Below are positions 5,001 through 48,123 of a stretch of DNA of 64,000 bases, one piece after another (the stretch's first letter is position 1; each line of letters opens with the position of its first letter). The notes under the pieces were generated by a model. It was not told the origin of the DNA. It saw nothing but the letters and a program-made list of their open reading frames with translations, and searched no databases. The stretch covers positions 66,092,001 through 66,156,000 of the forward strand of contig OX638153.1 of assembly GCA_951804945.1 (NCBI GenBank). The letters run 5' to 3'. The translations under genes and the position numbers were made by a program. The DNA comes from Podarcis cretensis. Taxonomy: Eukaryota.

Positions 5001-8000
5001 AACAAGATGCACAAGAGACGTTTTGCAAATATTTCATCCGGCAAATTCCAGTTTATAACCAATTTTACCCTGAGGCTAAGGGACTGCAATAACACACAAC
5101 TCACAATTTACACATACAACTATTAAAACAACTCTTTTTTAGGGAAAAGTGGGTTTAAATCACTTACTACAGTTAGGACTTCCAAGTCTTTTAAATAAGT
5201 TCGTTCAGTAGCAAGAATTTCTTTTGCAATGAAATAGGCTTTGTCTGCTGGGTACCTCTGAAAGATAAAAGCAAATCCCAAATAAATGAAACAGAAAATG
5301 TTTCTTATTAAGAAACCTTGGTGGAGCTATATAATAAGACCACTTTGACCATCCAGATGTGCCAATATAAAAGGAGAGCCAAAACCAAAGCCTCCTGCTC
5401 TAAATGGCTTTGAAGTATGTGGCTTTTTAAGGAAATATTTGAATCAACTATGCCCAATGTATTCTTCAGGTGAGGCAATAGGAATCCTTAACCTGAGATG
5501 TGAATATGAGTTTCATTAAGCCACACCCTGATCCTGATCTAGAGTTAGTTGCTTGAAACACACTGTTACCTGTGACCAAGCAGATACAGTAAGAACTAAC
5601 TGGCAGTGGTGCTAATTCACAGATGGGATACAACTGGTAGTGCACATTCCTGACATTGATGGTAACTGACATTCTCAACAGCACTGTCCCATACTGACAT
5701 CAAATCTATTTGGTACTGGCATGAAATATTCCCTTTCCTCTGCTATATGGGCAGGAGAATAGACTGCAGATACGGTGCTGATGCAAAAAGCATTTTCTCC
5801 CACCCCGCTATTTGGGTCATGCAACAACGACAACACTGATCCTCTAGGCTGTATGTGTCTGGACAGAGACATACTGCATCGAAAAGCTTCAACCTCGTTG
5901 TCACATTGAGCCTGATGGAAACAGAAACATGGGTACAGGAAGCCACAAATTTGCTTTTTAATACATCTCATCTAACCTCAGATAAGGCACCAAACCACAA
6001 CCTTGAGGTTTACTGTATTATTTTCAATAGAAAAAGTCCTAGATTAAGATTATGGAACATACTCCAAACACAAAAATGCCCAACCCCAAATTCCCAAATT
6101 CTTCTAAGTGTAAGATACAAAGTGGGAAGATAGAACTCCTAATTGTATGGTTAATTTCCCTCCTGCTTAGACATGCAAAATAAGGGTTTTGCCTTTCGTT
6201 CTAGTTAATTTCACGTTCACCAAGATTGATTCACCAGCATGATTCACCAGCAGTAATCAATATGGTTGTTAAATAAGATAAATTGTCTATGGGTTGAGCT
6301 GAGCTTGCTAAACAACAAAACCAGCTCATTCCCACCTGAAAAATGTGTTAAAGAGAAGGATGTTTTTGACAAGAAATAGTGGATTATTAGACTGCAGAAA
6401 AGCACTCAGAGAGTTGGAATTAATGTACTTTCTATAACTGTCTCTAATGTTTTACAGTACAACTATTCCCCACAAACAGAAAGGACAAAAATGGTGCTCT
6501 TGAGGTACAAAGAAGCATTTAGTTCATATCTCACTTTGAAACAGCTGGAACAAAGGATTGTTCCTTCTAGCAGTTTTACAGTAGCAAAGTGTCGTGTATT
6601 TATTTTAACACAGGTCAAGAAAAACCATTGTGTGGGAAGTTTAATAGTACACAAGTCAGTACAATAGCATAGCACTGGCAGATTTGCACATTGCTAATAT
6701 CTAAGGGCTTATGTACGCTTAACTTTTGCCATGCTCCTTCTATGCAGAGGTCCACACTTTAACGCTCTGTGTCCAAGTGGTTTATTTTGTTTTGTTTTGC
6801 CCCAAGCTTTCCCTGTGAAAACCTGTTTTTCAAAGTTTTCTGTGGATTGTGTTTCCTCTGATTGAAATTTAAAGAGTGGGTTTTTGCGGGGAAAGCTGTA
6901 GAGTAAAAACAAAAGGGGGGAGGGGGGCAACTCGGACACAGAAGTTTAAACCATGGACTGTGTGTGGAAAGAGTAGAGGAAAGGTAAATGTGAATAAGCC
7001 CCAACAAAGAAATCAGAAATTGAAGCAGAGGCTCATGAAACAAACAAACACAAATCACCCTCCTTGTCCTTGCCTTACCTTACGCCTTGCCTCATCCTCT
7101 TCTTCTATCCTGGCACCACCAACATCGCTCAGAACAGGACTCAAAAGAGGAGATGAGCCCTGGCCAGGTGTGTTCATATTCACATGAAACGAGGGGTTCA
7201 GAGTCATTGGACTCTTCATTACAAAGGAAGACAGCTGAGGACCTAAGTATCACATTAGGAAGGAAGTTGGGAGGAGAAAGAGGTTAAGAATTGGTTTTGC
7301 TTCAACAAAATACCACCAGGCACATCGCCAAATCCACATAACACTTGCAAGTAGTTGTCTCCCCTGGTTTGCTTAATTTTTTTTTTTTTTAAATGAGCCC
7401 ACAAATATTTTAAAGCAGTCTTTGAAAATGTTAGGTACAATTTCCTGGACGTCAAACTGGAATTAGCTAAGAATTTAGACTTTCGAACAAAAGCAACCTA
7501 CAACACCAACAATCCCATTCCCTCTGCTATGGCTAAACAGATCAAGACCACAATATACTGCTTCAACATACTCCTCTTGGAGATTTTCTTCCAGTAGCAC
7601 CTTAAAGACCAACTAGGTTAGTACTTGGTATGAGCTTTCGTGTGCATGCACACTTCTTCAGATACACTTCAGATGCACACGAAAGCTCATACCAAGTACT
7701 AACCTAGTTGGTCTTTAAGGTGCTACTGGAAGAAAATTTTTTTATTTTGTTTTGACTATGGCAGACCAACACGGCTACCTATCTGTAACTCCTCTTGGAG
7801 AGTTAGAGTTCTTACTACTTTCTGCAAACAGATCACAAGAGACACAGTGGCCCTGATAAACAGGGAATTGAAAGCAGGAGAACAAAAATGGGAAGGCTCC
7901 ATGTTTTCAGAGTTCAGCATACATTTGATTTCAGAAACTGTGTATGTATGGATAGGAAATATGAAACTAGAAATAGGGAGAATGCAGATTGCATGCCCTT

Positions 8001-9518
8001 CCTGACTTTGGAACCACATAGGAGCTTTTAAATAACTACCCATACTAAATACAACTTCCTCTACAGTCTTTAAACCATGTTGCATCACTAACTGGGTGGA
8101 GATAAGTTATTTCATTTGTCAAGTAATGTTTGAGGGTGTGTCCGGACAGCCGCGGCACAACGTAATTGTTACGTAGCAAGGAATGAAAAAGAAGCTTATC
8201 AAAACAATGTTTTAGCATTGTGACAATTACCAAGCTAGAGTAAATTTTCCATTTCTTGTAGCTTTTCTTTAGAGCAAGCAAGCTATTTCACAGAATACTG
8301 TTCTCTACAGAGAAGGTGTCTCAGTTTTAATGCAAGCCAATTCCATGATCAGTATCATGTAAGAATATCAGGCTGGATCAGGCTGAAGGCCCATCTAGTC
8401 CAGCACTCTTCTCACGGTGGCCAGCCAGTTGCTCACGAGAAGCCCACAAGAGGGACTTGAACACAGGAGCTTTGCACGAAATGGGAAATAAATGGCACAG
8501 ATCCGAACTGCAATGTTAAGCATTCTGGAGCCCTAGCATTGCGATTTGCTACCTAGAGCACAAAACTTCAAAATTAGGCTGTTCATCCCATTGTCCCTCA
8601 CTTTCAAAGCAAAACAGCTTCTCTACTTATGCATTTTGAAAGTTTCTTGCATTTGAATTATGGCTGACATTTTCCCTGTTATAATTAATATATATTATCA
8701 TTATTATTCCAATGCTAAAGCTGTTTTGGACAGGGTAATGCCAGAGGGGGCTCCTACGCTGACACCAGTAAGTGCTGCCCCAGATATGTCTGCCACTCCC
8801 ACTCCAAATTCCATTCTGTACAGCCTCAGAAAGACAGTATGAAGCTTTGTGCTCCGGCCAACATTTATTCTTGATTCCACTGTAAACAGCAAAAAAAAGT
8901 TCCACTGAACTGCCCCAAAATATCCACTCAAAGTGATATTAAGGCCCAGTAATAAACAGGCACATAATACTTTTCAACACTTATTTGAAGCGGGATTAAG
9001 AAATTGGAGGGCAGCCAGCTGCAAGGCTTCTGCTACAGTGCTACACTACTGAAAGGAACCGACTGCTCTCTCATTTGACTCAGGAAGCAAAGCCTTTTAA
9101 AAGTAATGAATGCCAAAAGAAAGGGGAGGCATTACGAAAAGGAGAGGAAGTTTAAGTGCATGCATTCCCACTGGTTAACTCAGGAAGCTAAACAGTGTTA
9201 CACTTAGGTCACCTGGAAGAGATTCAGAATATCAGGGAAGTTAACTATTAACATTCTTTGGCCAGTCTACTGTGTATTGTATCAGCTCATGCAGTCCCCT
9301 GCTCCTCCTCCTGACTTTTAGTATCGTATCTGTAAGATCCAGCGTATTTGTTGGCATTTGTTCCTTGCTGGGAAAGCAGTTTACGGGAAATCTGCTTGAA
9401 CGTACAAGTCAAATACAAGCAAGAAGCAGCTTGGACTTCCCCCAGAGTCTTTAGTATTTCATTTCCTTTCCAACAGAAACCGCTCCTCTTTAATGTTTTC
9501 TTTTTCTCTTTCTTTCTT

Positions 9519-15500: not shown

Positions 15501-18500
15501 AGTACCCTACAAGTACTTACAAAACAGAAGGGCATGGAATCCAAACAAATCCTGAATATTTTACTTAATTTCAAAACATACAACATATTTAAGAACAACA
15601 GCTACTAGAAAAGCCTCTGGGGAAGTTAACAGGCACATCTAGAAAATGCACCTGCATTTGACCAATCTTGTATTTAATTATGATAGTTTTGAATAAAATA
15701 TGGGTGTTGTGCAATGCTCCAAATGGAAAGGAAATGGTTGTTTGATTTTAGTAACTGAACTGATCTATTCAATAGGAAGCTTTAACAGGAAATTTGCTGT
15801 ACTGTGCCAAGAGTTCAGAAGTGGATTGCCATAGATATGTTGTTTCTGAGAAGAAATACAATTACCTCACCACACGACCTGGAAGCTGTACGCCGGCTCC
15901 CTCGGCCAATAAAGCGAGATGAGCGCCGCAACCCCCGAGTCCGTCACGACTAGACCTAATGGTCAGGGGTCCCTTTACCTTACTATTTACTAACCGAAGT
16001 TATTTGTACAATCTCAGCATGTACCACCAGTCATTGATCATGACCAATATCTACCGTATTTTTCGCTCTATAACACACACCCGACCATAACACGCACGTA
16101 GTTTTTAGAGGAGGAAAATCCATAGGCATGCCACCCGTAGGCATTTCCTCCATAACACGCACAGACATTTCCCCTTACTTTCTAGGAGGAAAAAAGTGAG
16201 TGTTATGGTGCAAAAAATACGGTAATTTTAGAACTCCTAGCCTGTATCAGCAAAGGTGCATGTATTCTTAACTTTAAAATCTTACTTAAGCAAAGTCCTT
16301 TCTGAATTATGGTTGGCAAAAGTGGGGGGAAAACCCTTTAATCTAGTAATATAACTTTATGGCATCACCAACATAGCTTTAGAATAAGCAAAGCAATACT
16401 TAAAATCCAAGTTAAATATAGAATATGAAAACCCAAGTTGCAGATATTCTCCACATACCCACATGAAGCACAATCTGGCCCTACAGAGTCCTGGTACTTC
16501 TCTGAAAACCTAGAGGGGCAGAGATGTCTGATTGTAAAAAAATCTGACATCTAAAGATTGCATTTCATGGTACAGTAAGCCAGCAACTTGTGCACATCCA
16601 GCTTTATGTGTTTTGCCAAAACAACAACAACAACACTTTTTTTAAAAATGGAAGGGATGTCCTGGGGAAAAGACTTTGGCAATGCCACCTGTGTTTGAAC
16701 CCAGTGTGTTTTGCCTTTATGTGATTTGGCTTCAGGCGCGATCCTTGGAACGTAACCCCCGGGTTAAGTTGCAGGTTTACTATATGTATTATTTAATGTG
16801 CTACTACCGCAACTAGTATAAATTCTTGATGATTTAACCATTTCAGGCACATGGAGCATATCACTGCAGGTATGATAAACTACTAGTGAAAGTGAATCTT
16901 GTATGGGAAAGACTCAGAACAAAAAGCAAACTAATTGGCAGCCCGAAGGCAATTGCTCCATTATGCTGAGCTGCACACTGATAAAATCAGTCTAATAAGA
17001 ATTTGGTCAGGAGGATTATGAAAGTGGTTTTTTAAAGTATGATAGGAAATCCACAGTGAAAACACAATTATCACAGAGTATACAAACCAGATGTGCCTGG
17101 TTCCCCACCACCACCACAGAAAATCTGGTGAAGTTCATATATTGCACAATCTTCCCTTTCACACAGGCATAATTAGGAAATTATAATGGAAAGATACACA
17201 AGCCTATTTAATTAACTCAAGATATAATCCTTTCAGACACAGCCCTAACAGTATTTTAGTTTATTTCCTGTACAAGGTTTGCTTTCCTGCTTTGCAACTC
17301 AAATACATTCTTCAATGTCTATCAGGAGACCTGAGAGAACCAGGTTTTGCCAACTCTCTTACCGCCATAAAATAGTCTTTCAATACCACTTGTATATTCA
17401 TAGTCTAACAATAATAAGATCATTTCCTTGAAGTAGTACCATCTTCAAATAAAAGCTCAAGCAAACCTTTCATATTGATTCAGTTAAGTTACAGCAGGGG
17501 TGAGGAATCTGTGGCCCTCCAGATGCTGTTCCACTCTATCTTCCAAGGCCAATAGCCATGCATGATGTGATTTGTAGCCCAACTGCATATGGAGGACCAC
17601 AGGTTCCCTATCCCTGTTATAGGCTTGTTTCTGCAGAGTAATGTGTTAAAATTCTAACAAAGCACCAACAAGGAAGCGCAAAATATGCCAATGGCCTTTC
17701 AAGACATTTACTGCTCATCAGCAGCGATGCTTTGTAGAGGGTCTGTTATTTGCAAAGTGTACCTAAGTTCAAAATTCAGTGATGCAGTGACCTTCACCAC
17801 AGATGGTTTAAACAATTGCTGGGTGATAAAAAATGCATAGTACAATACATTAGAAAAATCATAATGGCTAGTCTGCACCACTGACATCTACACTTCAAAG
17901 TAGCAACTAATTTATGATGGCTTGAGAAAAATTGGGATAAGGATTTTAAAAAAGGACATGAATTTGAAATCCAATCACTAGAATGAACCAGGTCAGAAAC
18001 AATCTACATTATCTTTTCTCTTTCAAAACCAGATTCCTGAAAGCATAAATTTACGTAATATCAACCAAAATATTAATGGCTTGTGTGTGTGTCTTCTGTT
18101 TTATCTTCCTGGGTGAGATTCTTAAGATTATTCTGAAAATCAAGAGTGAAATTCTCTCTAGTAGCCTCAGCAAAGGGGTTGTTGAAAAAGAGGTTTATGT
18201 CTAATGGGGCTGCAGTTTCTGAATCCCATGAGTCATCAGTGCTACTAGAGTCTTCTGTAGTGGTAGGTGGATAGCTCAGCTGTTCCAACTGGTCAATAAT
18301 GTCAGTGAACTGAAAAGCTGAACTTGACTCAGAGCGAACTGAATATGCTGGAAAATTCACCATTGAACTAGCTTCAGAGTGATTAGCAGAGCTATAAGTG
18401 TGCAAAAATGGCATACCATTTAATGTCAAATTGTTGAGAGAACTACTTTCAGAACGGTTGTTAATTAATGAACTAGTTTCAGAAGGACTCAGAAGACTTT

Positions 18501-21500
18501 GCATTCTGCTTGCCTGAGCTTTAACTTCAAACAATTCCGAGGTATCTGATGGCTGTTCATTCCCATTAAAATCACTCTCTCCTTCAAATTCAAACTCATG
18601 ATCCATGTTCATATCTACTGCTTCTATGGAGCACCTATCAGGACTTGACTGAGAAGACATCATATTTCTTTGCAGAATTTCTTTAGTTAAAGCAGGTGAC
18701 TCTGAGAGACAATTAGTTAGATCTGACTCCTGCAAATCTAAACCATCATACAAATAGGAAAATGCTTCAGAACCTCCAGCAAAAAAGGACATTTCTGCTG
18801 GATCATCATCAATGAACTCTTCTGAAACCTGAAGCTGGGAGCTAACCAGTTTTACAAGTGAGGCACCCCTACCTTGAGGCAGATGCTGTTTAGCAGCAAT
18901 GGCCATACCTGTGGTAAAGTCATCCACATAATTGTCATTTTTACAAGTAATCCTACCTTCTACTGCTACACCTAAACCACAGCTACTCTCAACATCAGTA
19001 CAAGTGGGAGTGCAGTTTTCTGCAACATTACAAAGCCCAACACCTTGGAATGACTGGAGTACTGGTGATCCAGGCTGCTGTATCACTTTCTTCCCAGTTT
19101 CTTCTGATGTCCCACTATTTGCTTCTGCGGCCAAGCTCCTTGTATGGGATATTCTGGGCTCCAAAAATAAAGGCTTGCTCTCTGTGAAAGTGGGCAAGCT
19201 GGCAATGTTTGTGGCTAACGCATTATCCGAATGAAAGGAGGCATATGTACATGCATTAGGCCCAGAGGTTCTTAATCCATCTGTAAATGAGGCACTCTGA
19301 GGAGAAAAACAAGAGAGGAAGCTATTAGACAATCTGTTTTAGGATACATCTAACCATGTCCACTTGATTTGACAGATAAACATGTTTATAAGTTCAAGAA
19401 TTTTACCGAGATGACTTGACTGTGAAGACTGTGGGACTCATCCTTGCCTGTTTTCAGTGTGAGAGACACTACCGCATGACAAAGGTGGGTGAATCGGTGC
19501 CCTCTGCTCTATCTATGGCATTTTAAATCTGGCTCAAGTGTTCAGTCATCCATGATTTGTATTAATTTTAGAAAAAAACATATTGTGCCAACTTTTTAAA
19601 GGTAACCATTTCATTGAGTCTTGAGCTTTGAAAGCCTGTTTCTTCAGATATGGTGGAAGGATACATGCATTATGTGACTATTAGACATAAAGGTAAAGGT
19701 AAAGGTACCCCTGCCCATATGGGCCAGTCTTGACAGACTCTGGGGTTATGCGCCCATCTCACTTAAGAGGCCAGGGGCCAGCGCTGTCCGGAGACACTTC
19801 CGGGTCACGTGGCCAGCGTGACCTATTAGACATAGGCAGATTGTATTGATCACTCACTGGTTTCTCTAGATTTTCATGTCTGTTTTGCATTCATTCCTTT
19901 ATTCTTTTATGTAGAAGTGGCCCTGTTTGGTCTTTATAAAATGGCAGAGGGAATTATTGTGAGGTGATGTATCTTTATTATATGAAATTGAGGATGAATG
20001 AACTCTTCATAGTATGACTAATGATGTTTTCCAGATATAATGTTCGGAGTAGATGAATGGAGAAAACTGGCCCTAGGTTTCTTACAGATAACTCTTCCTC
20101 TTAAGGTCTACATGAGAGTACTATGTTGGTTTAGAATTCTGGATTTGGGACCAGAGAAAGTTGATTCATTATATGACTGTGTTAACTGTAACAGTAATTA
20201 TGCATGAAATCTTGACACTCTGAAATGGCATCTATAGAAAAGTTTTTGCTATTGCAACAGTAAGGAGATTTATTTTCTATACACTGGTAAATCATATCGA
20301 TAATGAACTACAGCTCCTGGCTGATAAAGATATACGAATTATTTAGGACCAAATAGTGATCTGGATCCAAAGAACGGCGTTGTTCCATGTGCCCAAAAAA
20401 AGATTCATGCTTTTAGAACGGCGCCCCCATCCACCCATATATATTCCATGTAGCAAATTTCCTTTGCAAGTAGGTTTTATATGCAGTTTGCAATATGGCA
20501 CGGAGCTCTGCCATTCAAAAGAAAAAAGCTAAAAATTCCCCAGGCAAACACTCAGGAAAAATTGTTTTCCTGTACAAGCTGAAAAACTCTGAAGTTGATT
20601 CAACAGTACACACATATTTAACATTACTACCAGAATTGGGCAAGGCTGAACAGAGCAATGATTGAAAATATATATATAATTTTAAATGCAGACGTCATTC
20701 ATGCTTTAGAATGAAAAGGCTGAGTTTCATAATCTTTCTGATAATTCAAAACAGGTTAATATCAAGACTAACCTGTTTGGGTGTATCAGCATGCAAGGTG
20801 TGAGCAGACATTCTAGTTTTACTATGCCTCCTGTAAAGAAAGAATATGCTGTGATACCCTGATCACTTCATTAGCTATATACAGAAAGCAAATGGGGGGC
20901 CTACAGTAAGAAGCTATTCCTGAAGAATAACCTACTTCATAAGGCTGTTAGGTGTGATAAAGATTAATAGTAATAAATCAACGAGCCTCAGAATTTTGTC
21001 ATTCGTGGATAATTGTTTCTGTTAGACACAGTGACTGCAAATTATAACTTTAACTGGAGAAAGAGGAAAGCTGCAAAAATGTATTTCCATATTCTGTAAG
21101 TTTCAACACAAATATCTAAAATACAAATCCAGGATAGGTTACATTTTTAACATTCAAAAAAATGCTTAAAATGTTTATTCATGTGGTCCAGATGCTCAAG
21201 ATCTGGTACACCTCTCCAAACTCTCAATAGCCAATTTTGGGGTGTGCAGGGGGCTGCAGCATGGAAGAAGAATAGCCAGAAATCATCTCCCTCCCTGTTC
21301 TGCTGACCGATGCTTTTTGTCAGCAGAAGGGAAGCTCTGGATACCATCCGGTAAGTATAACAATGAGCAAATGCAAGATGGTTTACAACATTGGAACAAA
21401 AAAAGACTACATGTCTCCAGTTGGCACTATGTGAAGGAGAGTGAAGTTTAAGCCAACATATTTTCATGCCATTCAATCAAATCACTTTTCTGAATTTGAA

Positions 21501-45900: not shown

Positions 45901-48123
45901 CAGATTACTTCCTGTATAGCTCAATAAACGTTCTGAGTTCCAAAAACAGTTCTTTATTTTAGACCTCAGAATGTAGTGAGTCATGGTCAACCATATAAAG
46001 ATTTGATTTTAAGTAAATCAAGACATAAAAATACTGATTTAAGACAACAAGAGCAAAGTGTGCCCCTTTTTATACCATGCCTGTTGAAGTGGCACATAAA
46101 CCACACATGATAAAATAATAGAATCTGACTTGTCTAACCCCAACTTAATGAAAGTTTGAAAGCAGGCCATTTTCACTTGTGGGATTCAGACCTTACATAG
46201 ATAACTTATTGCAACAAGCTGGGAAACCTTAAAATGACTCAAATACCAAACAGTAATTTAAGAAATCTAAAGAAAAAGTATCAGGCAATTATTTTAAAAA
46301 TAGCTAAAGAGAATATTCTAATATTCAATAGCTTTCAAAAGAATTTAAGAATTATTTTTCCACTCTCTTTGTGCAACTGGAAGATGTGCTCTGCAACTGG
46401 CTACGTGCATTAACTAACTGCACCCTGATGGCATGTTAATATATTTTGTTAAGCAGTCACAGGATACTTAAGTCACCTCTGGAAAATCCCTTCTAGAAAA
46501 TCCTCTCCCCTAGTTGTATGAAGGTGGATTACACTGAAATGCTCAAAGGAACATACTTGGTTTTCTTTTAATCAGGGTCAGTGATGGTCACAGCATCAGT
46601 TAGTGCAGGAGGAGAATTCACACAAAGCATAGTTACAGAACACAAAATAAAGTACTCACTCTATTACAGTGCATCTGAAAGTGTGGGCAACTAGTCTGTA
46701 TCAAGAAGTGGAAACATTATTTAGTATGATAGCCAATTCAAACAGCCTACACCAAATGCCACATTTGGGAAGCTCCAGTTGTGGGAAAATATGATTACAA
46801 GAGACACACATTCAAGATAAAATCTGTACTTCTTTGGCAATAAAACTATATATCAAGCTACATTAGATTTTCTTTCAGAAACTTTAAGCAAGAACTTCAT
46901 ATCTGAATTATGCAAGAAAATTTCACCTAGCAATGTTTTGAAGCATTGATGACTAAAGGAATTGTACAACCATTTGTAATGAAAACTACATTAGATTTTC
47001 TTTCAGAAACTTTAAGCAAGAACTTCCTATCTGAATTATGCAAGAAAATTTCACCTAGCAATGTTTTGAAGCATTTATGACTAAAGGAATTGTACAACCA
47101 TTTGTAATGAAAACGTATCCTACATTTATGAAGAAATACATTGCCTAAAAGTACCAGGGGTAAATGGTATAAAGCATTTCCCCCACTAATTGCTTAATGA
47201 TAATCTAGAATGATAATCTAGTTTTGCCTCTCTCCTCCAAGTGAAACTACAGAAAAGAATAATTTAGAACACTCCTAAACAGGTGCTTCAAAATTCTTGT
47301 TTTCTATCAATATGAGCACAGGCATGATTGGGGTGGGGTGGGCGGTGGGAACAGAAAAAGCCAATTTGGCCCTAGCCAAGGTGTACATTGGCGGTATCCT
47401 CAAGACTATCCTGTTTATCTATATATTTCTTCCTCCAGGTTTCACAATATTTAGACATTTTGGCTGGGGGCACTCCTTATCATTAGCCAAACACAGAAAA
47501 ATGGAAAAAACACTTCACTTCCCCCATTTGCTTCATATCATCCCTCCACCCCATTTAAGAACAGGGGCACTGACAATAAACCAGTCCTACAAAAAAACAG
47601 GACACCTGCTTATATGGCCACATACAGACTATATGGGGAGGTAAATACATTTTTACCATGGTGGTTTAACATTGTTTAAACTCCCACGTGTAATGGGGTT
47701 TTAGTGAGTGAAAATAAATTAATTAAACCATGTGTTTGATTTGATCTTGAGATTCTTATATTTGTAACATTACATGTTGTTCCTATATGCCTCAACAGAA
47801 TAGCTAAAGACCTTTTAGCCACATTAAGTGCATTTTCTATGATTCACTCCCTTTCTCAAATGAATCCCTTTTCCATGTTGCATACAGACAAAAATCCAAA
47901 GCTATACTGAAAGTTTTACCTCAATATCAAGTATCTCCACAGTGTTGTCCAAATGCTTTATCCTTATTTGTAGAGACCTCTCATGTATTTTAGCAGGTGT
48001 TGAGGCTATAGCAGAGGAGAGGTTCTGTCCTGGTTCCAGGGTGCTCACTCCAGAATTTTTCTGGACTCCCAAACGAGAACCTGGAGTCTGCAGCACTCTG
48101 TAAGTGCCTTCTATCTCGCCCAT
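1427..48123 (-). CDS. FARP2: FARP2 (FERM, ARH/RhoGEF and pleckstrin domain protein 2), spliced CDS span of exons 2-19; 3' exons lie outside the window
   Basis: Exons join in frame via GT-AG introns into [13 protein letters not shown]...FERM...FA...DH; N-terminus and FERM/DH peptides match recalled vertebrate FARP2. Confidence 0.97.
2041..2085. repeat. (TTA)n microsatellite
   Basis: About 14 TTA units. Confidence 0.95.
2811..3031 (+). mobile_element. Tc1/mariner (Tigger/pogo-like) MITE, family A
   Basis: TA-flanked CAGTGGTACC...GTACCACTG; closely similar to copies at 50963 and 57861; right TIR partly deleted. Confidence 0.88.
3196..3446. mobile_element. Tigger/pogo-like MITE, family B (degenerate)
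   Basis: Left end CAGTGGTACCTCGG, degenerate right end CCAAGCTACGACTG+TA; different internal sequence. Confidence 0.7.
3556..3793 (-). CDS. FARP2: FARP2 exon 18 (DH)
   Basis: 238 nt, [13 protein letters not shown]...[20 protein letters not shown]...DYTDCR; donor GTGAGT. Confidence 0.96.
4221..4302 (-). CDS. FARP2: FARP2 exon 17 (DH)
   Basis: 82 nt, [27 protein letters not shown]. Confidence 0.94.
4364..4439. repeat. 38-bp tandem duplication
   Basis: TTTCCAGTAGAAACTAAAGCATACTAACA(A/G)TAACTATA x2. Confidence 0.95.
4715..4848 (-). CDS. FARP2: FARP2 exon 16 (DH)
   Basis: 134 nt, [44 protein letters not shown](W). Confidence 0.96.
5168..5257 (-). CDS. FARP2: FARP2 exon 15 (start of DH domain)
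   Basis: 90 nt, [30 protein letters not shown]. Confidence 0.96.
5699..5911 (-). CDS. Candidate in-frame cassette exon in FARP2 intron 14 (71 aa)
   Basis: Acceptor tgtttctgtttccatcag, donor GAT|GTCAGT, 213 nt, phase 0/0, no stop codon. Confidence 0.45.
7079..7242 (-). CDS. FARP2: FARP2 exon 14
   Basis: 164 nt, (G)[18 protein letters not shown]...[28 protein letters not shown]; donor AAG|GTAAGG. Confidence 0.92.
7583..7787. mobile_element. Penelope-like element remnant with inverted pLTR
   Basis: 13-bp TSD ACTCCTCTTGGAG (7570-7582, 7788-7800); perfect 65-bp inverted repeat; hammerhead core; 3' end GCAGACCAACACGGCTACC resembles recalled reptile Penelope ends. Confidence 0.8.
7628..7665 (-). 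ncRNA. Minimal type I hammerhead ribozyme motif
   Basis: GUAU-CUGAAGA-A-GUGUGC-AU-GCACAC-GAAA-GCUC-AUAC: core boxes, stem II, 4-bp stem I, palindromic AGCU in place of helix III. Confidence 0.7.
8357..8470 (-). mobile_element. CR1 LINE 3'-end fragment
   Basis: Reverse-complement similarity to the 3' end of the CR1 at 40040-40492 (GCTGGATCAGG...GGCCCATCTAGTCCAGCA). Confidence 0.7.
9500..9560. repeat. (CTTT)n/(CT)n pyrimidine microsatellite
   Basis: Direct reading. Confidence 0.95.
10580..10620 (-). terminator. Putative intronic polyadenylation signal
   Basis: TGTACTAATGTATGTATTAATAAA: three UGUA motifs directly before AAUAAA (10580-10585), GU-containing sequence downstream. Confidence 0.45.
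15869..15981 (+). mobile_element. Sauria SINE 3' fragment
   Basis: Matches the 3' part of the copy at 39175; ends GGGGTCCCTTTACCTT. Confidence 0.88.
16054..16222. mobile_element. Tc1/mariner-type MITE with CCGTATTT ends
   Basis: TA|CCGTATTTTT...AAAAATACGG|TA; internal CATAACACGCAC repeats. Confidence 0.85.
17495..17616. mobile_element. hAT-like MITE (related degenerate copies near 12350-12480, 30720-30860, 54500-54610)
   Basis: CAGGGGTGAGGAATCTGTGGCCCTCCA ... TGGAGGACCACAGGTTCCCTATCCCTG imperfect terminal inverted repeats. Confidence 0.7.
18073..19043 (-). CDS. In-frame extension of exon 13: alternative terminal coding segment (322 aa, acidic and Ser-rich)
   Basis: Stop-free continuation of the exon-13 frame for about 970 nt in AT-rich DNA; part of the longest ORF in the window (419 aa); protein-like composition with repeated motifs. 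Confidence 0.8.
19044..19296 (-). CDS. FARP2: FARP2 exon 13 (linker), short form; exact donor uncertain
   Basis: Acceptor tttttctcctcag; [10 protein letters not shown]...PVLQSFQ(G); 253 nt ending at weak phase-1 donor AAG|GTGTTG, compatible with exon 14. Confidence 0.8.
19690..19822 (-). mobile_element. 5'-truncated Sauria SINE (different subfamily)
   Basis: (ACCTTT)n tail; 12-bp TSD CTATTAGACATA at 19678-19689 and 19823-19834. Confidence 0.88.
20773..20830 (-). CDS. FARP2: FARP2 exon 12
   Basis: 58 nt, [19 protein letters not shown]; donor CAG|GTTAGT. Confidence 0.93.
21730..21798 (-). CDS. FARP2: FARP2 exon 11 (FERM-adjacent)
   Basis: 69 nt, (S)[22 protein letters not shown](R). Confidence 0.95.
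21974..22137 (-). CDS. FARP2: FARP2 exon 10
   Basis: 164 nt, [34 protein letters not shown]...SRGSSFRY. Confidence 0.96.
23208..23303 (-). CDS. FARP2: FARP2 exon 9 (FERM F3)
   Basis: 96 nt, [32 protein letters not shown]. Confidence 0.95.
23997..24144 (-). CDS. FARP2: FARP2 exon 8
   Basis: 148 nt, [49 protein letters not shown]. Confidence 0.95.
27396..27510 (-). CDS. FARP2: FARP2 exon 7
   Basis: 115 nt, (S)[37 protein letters not shown]; donor GTAAGT. Confidence 0.95.
28130..28260 (+). mobile_element. Degraded CR1 ORF2 fragment next to the exon 6 donor
   Basis: Reads [10 protein letters not shown], resembling the CR1 'AEKLNxFFASVF' motif. Confidence 0.55.
28286..28383 (-). CDS. FARP2: FARP2 exon 6 (FERM F2)
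   Basis: 98 nt, [32 protein letters not shown]; donor T|GTTAGT. Confidence 0.95.
29856..29934 (-). CDS. FARP2: FARP2 exon 5
   Basis: 79 nt, (R)[25 protein letters not shown](R). Confidence 0.95.
31189..31231 (-). CDS. FARP2: FARP2 exon 4
   Basis: 43 nt, [14 protein letters not shown]; donor GTAAGT. Confidence 0.95.
31810..32470 (+). mobile_element. Degraded L2-clade LINE reverse-transcriptase fragment
   Basis: [47 protein letters not shown] across frameshifts. Confidence 0.8.
33146..33250 (-). CDS. FARP2: FARP2 exon 3 (FERM F1)
   Basis: 105 nt, [35 protein letters not shown]; AG/GT ends. Confidence 0.95.
33754..34107. mobile_element. Tigger/pogo-like MITE, family C
   Basis: TIR CAGTGGTACCTCGCAAGACGAA / TTCGTCTTGCGAGGCACCACTG, TA TSD, internal CGCAAGACG subrepeats. 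Confidence 0.9.
34500..34978. mobile_element. Non-autonomous hAT DNA transposon
   Basis: 14-bp TIR CAGGCACGTCCAAC / GTTGGACGTCCCTG; perfect 8-bp TSD CTCTAGCA. Confidence 0.9.
38323..38466 (+). mobile_element. hAT MITE, copy 1
   Basis: AGTGCTTTT...AAAAAAGCACTG; 8-bp TSD TATGTAGG; homologous to the 43868 copy. Confidence 0.88.
39175..39625 (+). mobile_element. Full-length Sauria SINE with about 100-nt internal insertion
   Basis: tRNA-like head GGGACGCGGGTGGTGCTGTGGGTTAAACC...GGTTTGAATCCC; ACCTTT tail; TSD TATATTAATTAT at 39159-39170 and 39626-39637. Confidence 0.92.
39938..39970. repeat. (AC)n microsatellite
   Basis: Direct reading. Confidence 0.95.
40040..40492 (+). mobile_element. CR1 LINE 3' end
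   Basis: [18 protein letters not shown]-like ORF2 end, 3'UTR and TTATGTTCTTA tail. Confidence 0.85.
43868..44011 (+). mobile_element. hAT MITE, copy 2
   Basis: TIR CAGTGCTTTTTTT / AAAAAAAGCACTG; TSD AT(C/T)TCAAC. Confidence 0.88.
46858..47113. repeat. 128-bp tandem duplication
   Basis: 46858-46985 and 46986-47113 differ at 2 positions. Confidence 0.95.
47920..48123 (-). CDS. FARP2: FARP2 exon 2 (first coding exon; 29 nt of 5'UTR up to acceptor at 48152)
   Basis: [15 protein letters not shown]...[11 protein letters not shown]; donor GAG|GTAAAA; acceptor ctctcttag. Confidence 0.96.

Follow-up and report, generated by a model that had tools for sequence, protein, structure and literature searches.

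FARP2 and its FERM-only isoform

The window (the whole 64,000-nt stretch of DNA analysed) carries the gene FARP2 on its minus strand. The exons match the RhoGEF domain, FARP2 fits them better than FARP1 does, and a lacertid FARP2 matches at 99%. Thirteen coding exons were mapped, from position 48123 down to the exon beginning at 7242; this 13th coding exon is exon 14 if one non-coding exon lies in the GC-rich stretch near 52–54 kb. Intron 13, which hosts the insertion described below, is 11,799 nt long. The features of the locus are as follows (element positions are numbered from +1, the first base of the hammerhead; TSD, target site duplication).

18073..19041, minus strand: exon 13 read-through into intron 13, a 322-codon tail and a stop, giving a FERM-only FARP2 (~800 residues)
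7788..7800: right TSD copy, 13 bp, a perfect repeat of the left copy
7673..7787, plus strand: direct arm, a pLTR/5' UTR piece (element positions ~+19 to +132), 93% identical over 118 nt to L061
7741..7746, minus strand: AAUAAA hexamer on the FARP2 sense strand, brought by the insertion; one of 11 such hexamers in intron 13
7583..7737: perfect inverted repeat of 65 bp (7583–7647 with 7673–7737), 100% complementary
7665..7674: junction at which the arms meet head to head, marked by a short templated duplication of 8 nt; junctions vary among 30 copies
7628..7665, minus strand: minimal type I hammerhead motif, predicted cut 7632/7631; 6,322 exact copies genome-wide
7583..7668, minus strand: inverted arm, a pLTR/5' UTR piece (element positions ~-3 to +81), 96% identical over 84 nt to the L061 pLTRs
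7570..7582: left TSD copy, 13 bp; the empty site of run X7 has the 13-mer once
7079..7242, minus strand: FARP2 exon 14 (13th coding exon; 3' end approximate)

A search with the read-through tail returned 142 matching proteins, the top one a wall-lizard protein at 100%. Among the best 120 of these 142, many are FERM-only forms of FARP2, 700–830 residues long, from ray, chimaera, coelacanth, frogs, squamates, birds and mouse. The FERM-only isoform invoked in a preliminary description of this DNA is thus real, its 322-codon exon 13 tail being conserved from cartilaginous fish to mouse. Because it is ancient and its stop lies ~10 kb upstream of the insertion, the isoform is independent of the latter. 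In turtles, birds and others, ~91% of the tail is also found within full-length FARP2 of 1,220–1,400 residues, which suggests an alternative splice donor. A search of a partial literature library found no paper on the FERM-only FARP2 isoform or its regulation, and this read-through is possibly more interesting than the insertion itself.

The insertion in intron 13

The insertion is 205 nt long (7583–7787) and sits between two perfect 13-bp direct repeats. Both copies of the repeat can be read, and the empty allele of a relative (run X7) keeps one, in agreement with the TSD reported in the preliminary description. The insertion holds no open reading frame and consists only of two 5' UTR pieces joined head to head. 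The sense strand of the element in the inverted arm is also the sense strand of FARP2. The direct arm does not contain the CUGAAGA core; it is antisense in the FARP2 pre-mRNA, lies upstream of the sense arm and displays 3 nt of microhomology to the target at its 3' end. The predicted cut precedes the 13th coding exon, whose first base is 7242, by 389 nt, and the insertion is ~340 nt from the splice acceptor.

The Penelope origin proposed earlier stands, as the two arms are 93–96% identical to the pLTR of a full-length element in the same genome. The insertion is pLTR-derived and 5'-truncated, with an adjacent inverted copy and a target duplication, as in insertions of EN+ Penelope-like elements (PLEs). 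Judged by these features, two 5'-truncated pLTR pieces of a Neptune-type PLE make it up, arranged head to head. The inverted 5'-truncated pLTR layout is described as typical of PLE insertions (PMC8557442, PMC3846280). Inverted-pLTR insertions of Pen2a_Av (PMC3846280) likewise consist of a 5'-truncated copy joined head to head and a target duplication, which is 13 bp in FARP2 and 8–10 bp in the rotifer examples of that paper.

The parent element

The full-length parent, L061, was traced by following the sequence past the direct arm to copies that run into a long open reading frame. It consists of a pLTR, RT, Cys finger, GIY-YIG and a second pLTR, with one frameshift in the reading frame. The RT is recognised by RVT_1 (E 3.9e-12) and the GIY-YIG domain scores 23.3 bits against a curated cut-off of 22.6. 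L061 has the RT followed by GIY-YIG (one frameshift), as expected of an EN+ PLE, and its reading frame is flanked by pLTRs that contain the hammerhead. A CX4CX2C finger upstream of the GIY-YIG motif fits the CX2-5CxxC finger that, located between RT and GIY-YIG, marks Neptune and Nematis (PMC8557442). The family is assigned as Neptune-type, its clade being set by the finger motif and the vertebrate host and not by an RT tree. L061 resembles the Neptune EN+ PLEs of PMC8557442 in the order of RT, Cys finger and GIY-YIG, in a pLTR with a TATA and an initiator-like motif, and in the presence of a hammerhead in the pLTR.

Both arms of the FARP2 insertion map between the TATA plus initiator-like motif of the pLTR and the ATG, which follows the first base of the hammerhead motif by ~140 nt. 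In the pLTR (L061:3110–3145; L056–L058), the TATA motif is ~30 nt before the initiator-like motif, and the latter is directly ahead of the hammerhead. Of the 6,322 exact motifs in the genome, 2,516 extend 10 nt further into the promoter side, so most copies stop near the predicted start site; mutation and subfamily variants may contribute to this count. Numerous short copies terminate a few bases or less from the initiator-like motif, often with an extra G, and look as if they had been copied to a capped 5' end. The sequence at this spot is also similar to a splice acceptor.

No paper on this lacertid PLE family or on the insertion was found in the partial literature library. The supplementary alignments of PMC4209133 and of a bioRxiv preprint may hold reptile motifs close to the FARP2 copy.

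The hammerhead motif

The minus strand from 7665 to 7628 reads as claimed in the preliminary description: a CUGAAGA core, an extra A, stem II, GAAA, GCUC and a 4-bp stem I (GUAU/AUAC). The core and stem I of the minimal hammerhead proposed there are borne out, and stem II is not: given as 6 bp with a 2-nt loop, it folds as 5 bp with a 4-nt loop. The motif displays all the elements listed for minimal type I hammerheads of PLEs in PMC4209133, namely a CUGANGA and GAAA core, a UH site, helices I and II, an extra base before stem II, the G10.1–C11.1 pair and palindromic positions 15.2–16.2. Its core, the G-C base of stem II, the extra nucleotide and the palindromic AGCU are intact and identical to those of the parent element. 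Like the metazoan PLE motifs of Cervera and De la Pena (2014, PMC4209133), it has a 4-bp helix I, an extra base, a G-C pair at the base of stem II and a palindrome in place of helix III; helix II is 5–6 bp in the FARP2 motif and 7–8 bp in those hammerheads. According to the same source, minimal PLE hammerheads are mostly single motifs from truncated elements and are known in turtle and snakes, with opposite-strand pairs described as early as 2014; the lacertid family was not found in the part of its main text examined.

The 4-bp stem I is best read, by comparison with the parent, as the native stem of the family and not as damage in the FARP2 copy. A native 6-bp stem I shortened in the FARP2 copy, considered from the tandem junction in L025, was rejected: tandem junctions vary and the parent stem is likewise 4 bp. 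Stem II plus its loop (7640–7653) is a perfect 14-nt palindrome, at which two element RNAs could possibly pair, making it a candidate dimerisation handle in addition to the palindromic 4 nt of the cut site.

The folding energy of the 38-mer is ordinary (z -0.44; 61 of 200 shuffles are as stable). An Rfam scan of positions 6500–9000 with E up to 10 gave 14 matches, none from hammerhead families; the covariance models do not recognise this motif, which is of the minimal kind that does without helix III. The top-ranking matches, all miRNA-precursor models that stay under their gathering scores, reflect only the long hairpin. A relaxed minimal-hammerhead descriptor with stem checks finds a single match on both strands of the 64 kb, the motif at 7665–7628, and the exact 38-nt sequence occurs 6,322 times in the genome while its reversed control occurs 0 times. 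Being the sole descriptor match in 64 kb, located within the pLTR of a full-length PLE and present 6,322 times versus 0, the motif is not a product of chance.

Predicted folding and activity

Folded in the pre-mRNA orientation, the insertion forms one long hairpin (-141.6 kcal/mol; 0 of 200 shuffles are as stable). The 65-bp inverted repeat is predicted to bury the 3' strand of stem II, GAAA, the cut site and the 3' strand of stem I. The hammerhead-competent ensemble, modelled at the level of secondary structure with both stems imposed and no pairing allowed in the core, is predicted to lie 33.7 kcal/mol above the free ensemble for the whole insertion, 6.6 kcal/mol for the sense arm alone and 1.3 kcal/mol for the 38-mer alone. 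In growing transcripts, the long hairpin is predicted to be the best fold already as the cut site emerges. The relaxed descriptor finds no second motif, and so no dimer partner in cis, on either strand of the 64 kb. With a predicted penalty of this size and no partner in the 64 kb, the motif is predicted to have neither an accessible core nor a helix III in cis or via a tandem partner. The preliminary description had offered silencing as its fallback, and the 65-bp hairpin over the motif, the 4-bp stem I and the missing tandem partner within 64 kb agree with it. With the antisense arm absent (7583–7672, minus strand), the 5' UTR of the element is predicted to pair the 5' strand of the hammerhead with downstream sequence, and the native element RNA may hold its ribozyme off by default.

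Single minimal hammerheads are reported not to cleave in vitro, and dimers and trimers to cleave little (PMC4209133). A related system is Poseidon of the green anole (Frangieh et al. 2024, PMC11167929), also a lizard PLE with a hammerhead in its pLTR. Its hammerhead cut only when the element protein was added, and the site was not an end point of any RNA read. At the target, both strands were nicked by the protein and extended by copying from internal sites of the RNA, and such an internal RT start with both strands cut and extended fits the FARP2 arms, each of which ends at the target duplication. Poseidon belongs to another clade, however, and its open reading frame starts inside stem II, whereas the ATG of the lacertid element follows the motif at the distance given above.

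Intronic regulatory ribozymes, such as that of CPEB3 (PMC10274809) and the conserved amniote hammerheads (PMC7229834), resemble the FARP2 copy in that a sense-strand intronic motif is located upstream of an exon. They are deeply conserved, and CPEB3 is active alone, whereas the FARP2 copy is lineage-restricted, one of thousands, devoid of helix III and predicted to be sequestered. Fast intronic ribozymes lower splicing and slow ones have no effect (Fong 2009 as cited in PMC10274809). The CPEB3 ribozyme has 9,931 nt between itself and the exon, and a half-life of 2–3 min, to act (PMC10274809); in FARP2 the distance is 389 nt.

Sister copies in the genome

A genome search with the 205-nt insertion gave 1,004 candidates, and all 40 of the 40 scored match almost the full 205 nt at 90–100%. 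The head-to-head layout is common to the 30 copies that were fetched; junction, arm length and target duplication vary. Clustering of the inversion point in these 30 is biased by the query that selected them, and a second set was therefore chosen by the 3' part alone. In that set, an upstream inverted arm is present in 20 of 29 other copies and a complete or near-complete motif in 20 of 29. The two occur together, with the motif complete, in 13 copies, and the opposite arm covers the motif in all 13; seven of the 29 have an uncovered motif. The modal target duplication is 13 bp (11/29), and in 4/29 none was detected.

Short tandem arrays of a 182–187-nt unit also occur in the family. Locus L036 (1201–1832) contains 3.5 tandem units of 182 nt that are 100% identical, with a complete motif in each, plus an inverted copy. 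By its sequence, this array is retrozyme-like and constitutes a natural dimer construct of the family. The FARP2 insertion shares with non-LTR retrozymes (PMC7229834; 10.64898/2026.07.22.740005) a short non-coding PLE-derived sequence and a type I hammerhead. Retrozymes are tandem (10.64898/2026.07.22.740005), whereas the FARP2 copy is inverted with one motif, the tandems of 182–187 nt being elsewhere in the genome. The definition asks for two or more tandem units in a row that all carry a complete hammerhead; other loci, e.g. L036, have them and the FARP2 copy does not.

There are 60 copies that begin at the cut site, compared with 36 and 31 for the two adjacent positions, and C is replaced by T in 37 of these 60. 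The first 30 of the 60 comprise 10 point mutants, two microhomology joins and 18 truncations, with three pairs being the two arms of one insertion. The slight excess suggests no clear cleavage footprint, yet it is not zero. A missing footprint is no proof of inactivity, as cut RNAs may be degraded.

Age and distribution of the insertion

Contigs of eight runs, of 23 listed, were examined. The insertion is present in five of the eight, under three organism labels (three samples of organism A, organism B and organism C), with both junctions seen. The site is empty in the other three (organisms D, E and G), in each of which one contig spans it. In the empty allele of organism D (run X7), 7569 is followed directly by 7788, and the 13-mer is present once. 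The flanks of the empty-site runs differ from the window by ~1–1.6%. This pattern of filled and empty sites, combined with the low flank divergence, indicates that the insertion is recent and restricted to a small clade; the youth that had been read from its perfect TSD is confirmed by the precisely empty site in close relatives. With the site empty in three of eight runs, the motif is not an intronic regulatory ribozyme conserved at an orthologous position.

The insertion looks homozygous in all five carrier runs, although contigs drop rare alleles, so that fixation in organisms A–C is not implied. Apparent homozygosity across three organism labels fits drift; selection is also compatible with it. 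Summed contig depth over the insertion is ~ten thousand times that of the flank and is not a copy number. A high-copy repeat end at 8350–8420, ~570 nt from the insertion, coincides with a depth peak in four runs.

Probable origin of the insertion and its likely lack of effect on FARP2

The insertion is very probably a young, neutral by-product of an abundant Neptune-type PLE, with its hammerhead predicted to be switched off by its own hairpin. To form it, the element endonuclease would make a 13-nt staggered cut at the target, and each nicked strand would serve as primer for reverse transcription that starts within the 5' UTR of an element RNA. The cDNA copies would run to the 5' end of the RNA and then join via a short duplication. 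Nicking and extension of both strands would be the simplest origin for two arms that each end at the target duplication, by analogy with an element of the Poseidon clade, from which this two-primer model is borrowed. Self-priming on an antisense template is a published alternative, preferred in PMC3846280.

As the arms are head to head, a host polymerase coming from either side would read the antisense arm first, and the 65-bp duplex is therefore predicted to form before the 3' half of the hammerhead can fold. Even if freed from the duplex, a minimal hammerhead, which has no helix III, would cut only with the help of a second copy or of the element protein. Intron 13 would then be spliced normally, and the FARP2 isoform ratio would be set by the ancient exon 13 read-through upstream. 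With a motif that is one of >6,000 identical copies and is predicted to be locked in a hairpin, the insertion likely has no effect on FARP2, and a regulatory role of the hammerhead in this gene is unsupported. By itself, the insertion matters little, as thousands of equally ordinary ones exist. It is valuable as study material: this lizard Penelope family is very young, its parent is nearly intact, its minimal hammerhead recurs unchanged in thousands of copies, and close relatives offer both filled and empty alleles. This material suits two questions, namely whether minimal PLE hammerheads cut in vivo and whether unlocked sense-strand intronic copies are purged while hairpin-locked ones are tolerated.

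Even with no ribozyme at work, the AAUAAA and the long perfect duplex that the insertion adds ~340 nt from the acceptor could have an effect. ADAR editing or Microprocessor cutting of the 65-bp duplex, or AAUAAA-driven intronic polyadenylation, would give slightly less full-length mRNA. The perfect duplex does resemble miRNA-precursor models (below thresholds), and the hexamer is on the sense strand (7746–7741), close to the acceptor. However, it is one of 11 in the intron, its downstream elements lie inside the duplex, and nothing sets the FARP2 copy apart from thousands of sister hairpins, which makes such an effect unlikely.

A bolder reading, to which we give very little credence, is that head-to-head Penelope insertions are self-muzzling and that the FARP2 copy is a conditional ribozyme which, unlocked by editing, a helicase or the element protein, would cut the pre-mRNA and shift the ancient isoform balance in one wall-lizard lineage. 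If self-muzzling were true, thousands of ribozymes would be tolerated in introns, since the antisense arm would always precede the hammerhead in the host transcript.

Cutting of FARP2 pre-mRNA by the hammerhead, as a dimer in trans with another transcript of the family or helped by the element protein or a helicase, would shift output to the FERM-only form, as the preliminary description had proposed. The FERM-only isoform exists and the motif has kept the core, stem II G-C base, extra nucleotide and AGCU of the parent ribozyme; cleavage is protein-assisted in the anole element (PMC11167929) and an intronic ribozyme tunes splicing of CPEB3 (PMC10274809). Against this, the motif is predicted to be buried at a cost of 33.7 kcal/mol with the antisense arm transcribed first, the predicted penalty from misfolding is still 6.6 kcal/mol for the sense arm on its own, and no partner lies in cis within 64 kb. 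The 389 nt from cut to exon is short beside the 9,931 nt and 2–3 min half-life of CPEB3 (PMC10274809), and copies starting at the cut site are rare (60, with 36 and 31 for the adjacent bases, and T for C in 37 of the 60). Furthermore, the isoform is older than the insertion by hundreds of millions of years and ends ~10 kb upstream of it, and the insertion is missing in relatives. The proposal is highly improbable; were it true and FARP2 isoforms shifted by this copy, one would be looking at the beginning of exaptation of a transposon ribozyme, which is rarely caught.

Least probable of all is mobility of the whole 205-nt palindrome as one unit, be it a non-autonomous mini-element or a retrozyme: all 40 scored places match almost the whole unit and the family has short tandem arrays of a 182–187-nt unit, but junctions and arm lengths vary from copy to copy, as do tandem junctions, so that each copy was built anew, the same junction with both ends recurs in none of the 29 other loci compared, and the FARP2 copy, with its single motif and no tandem repeat, falls outside the definition of a retrozyme (10.64898/2026.07.22.740005); a fixed unit was rejected on the variation in junctions and arm lengths.

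At inversion junctions of sister copies (L047, L073, L079, L084 and L090), short stuttered repeats of the 5' end of the element are often present, pointing to repeated template jumps when two cDNA ends join.
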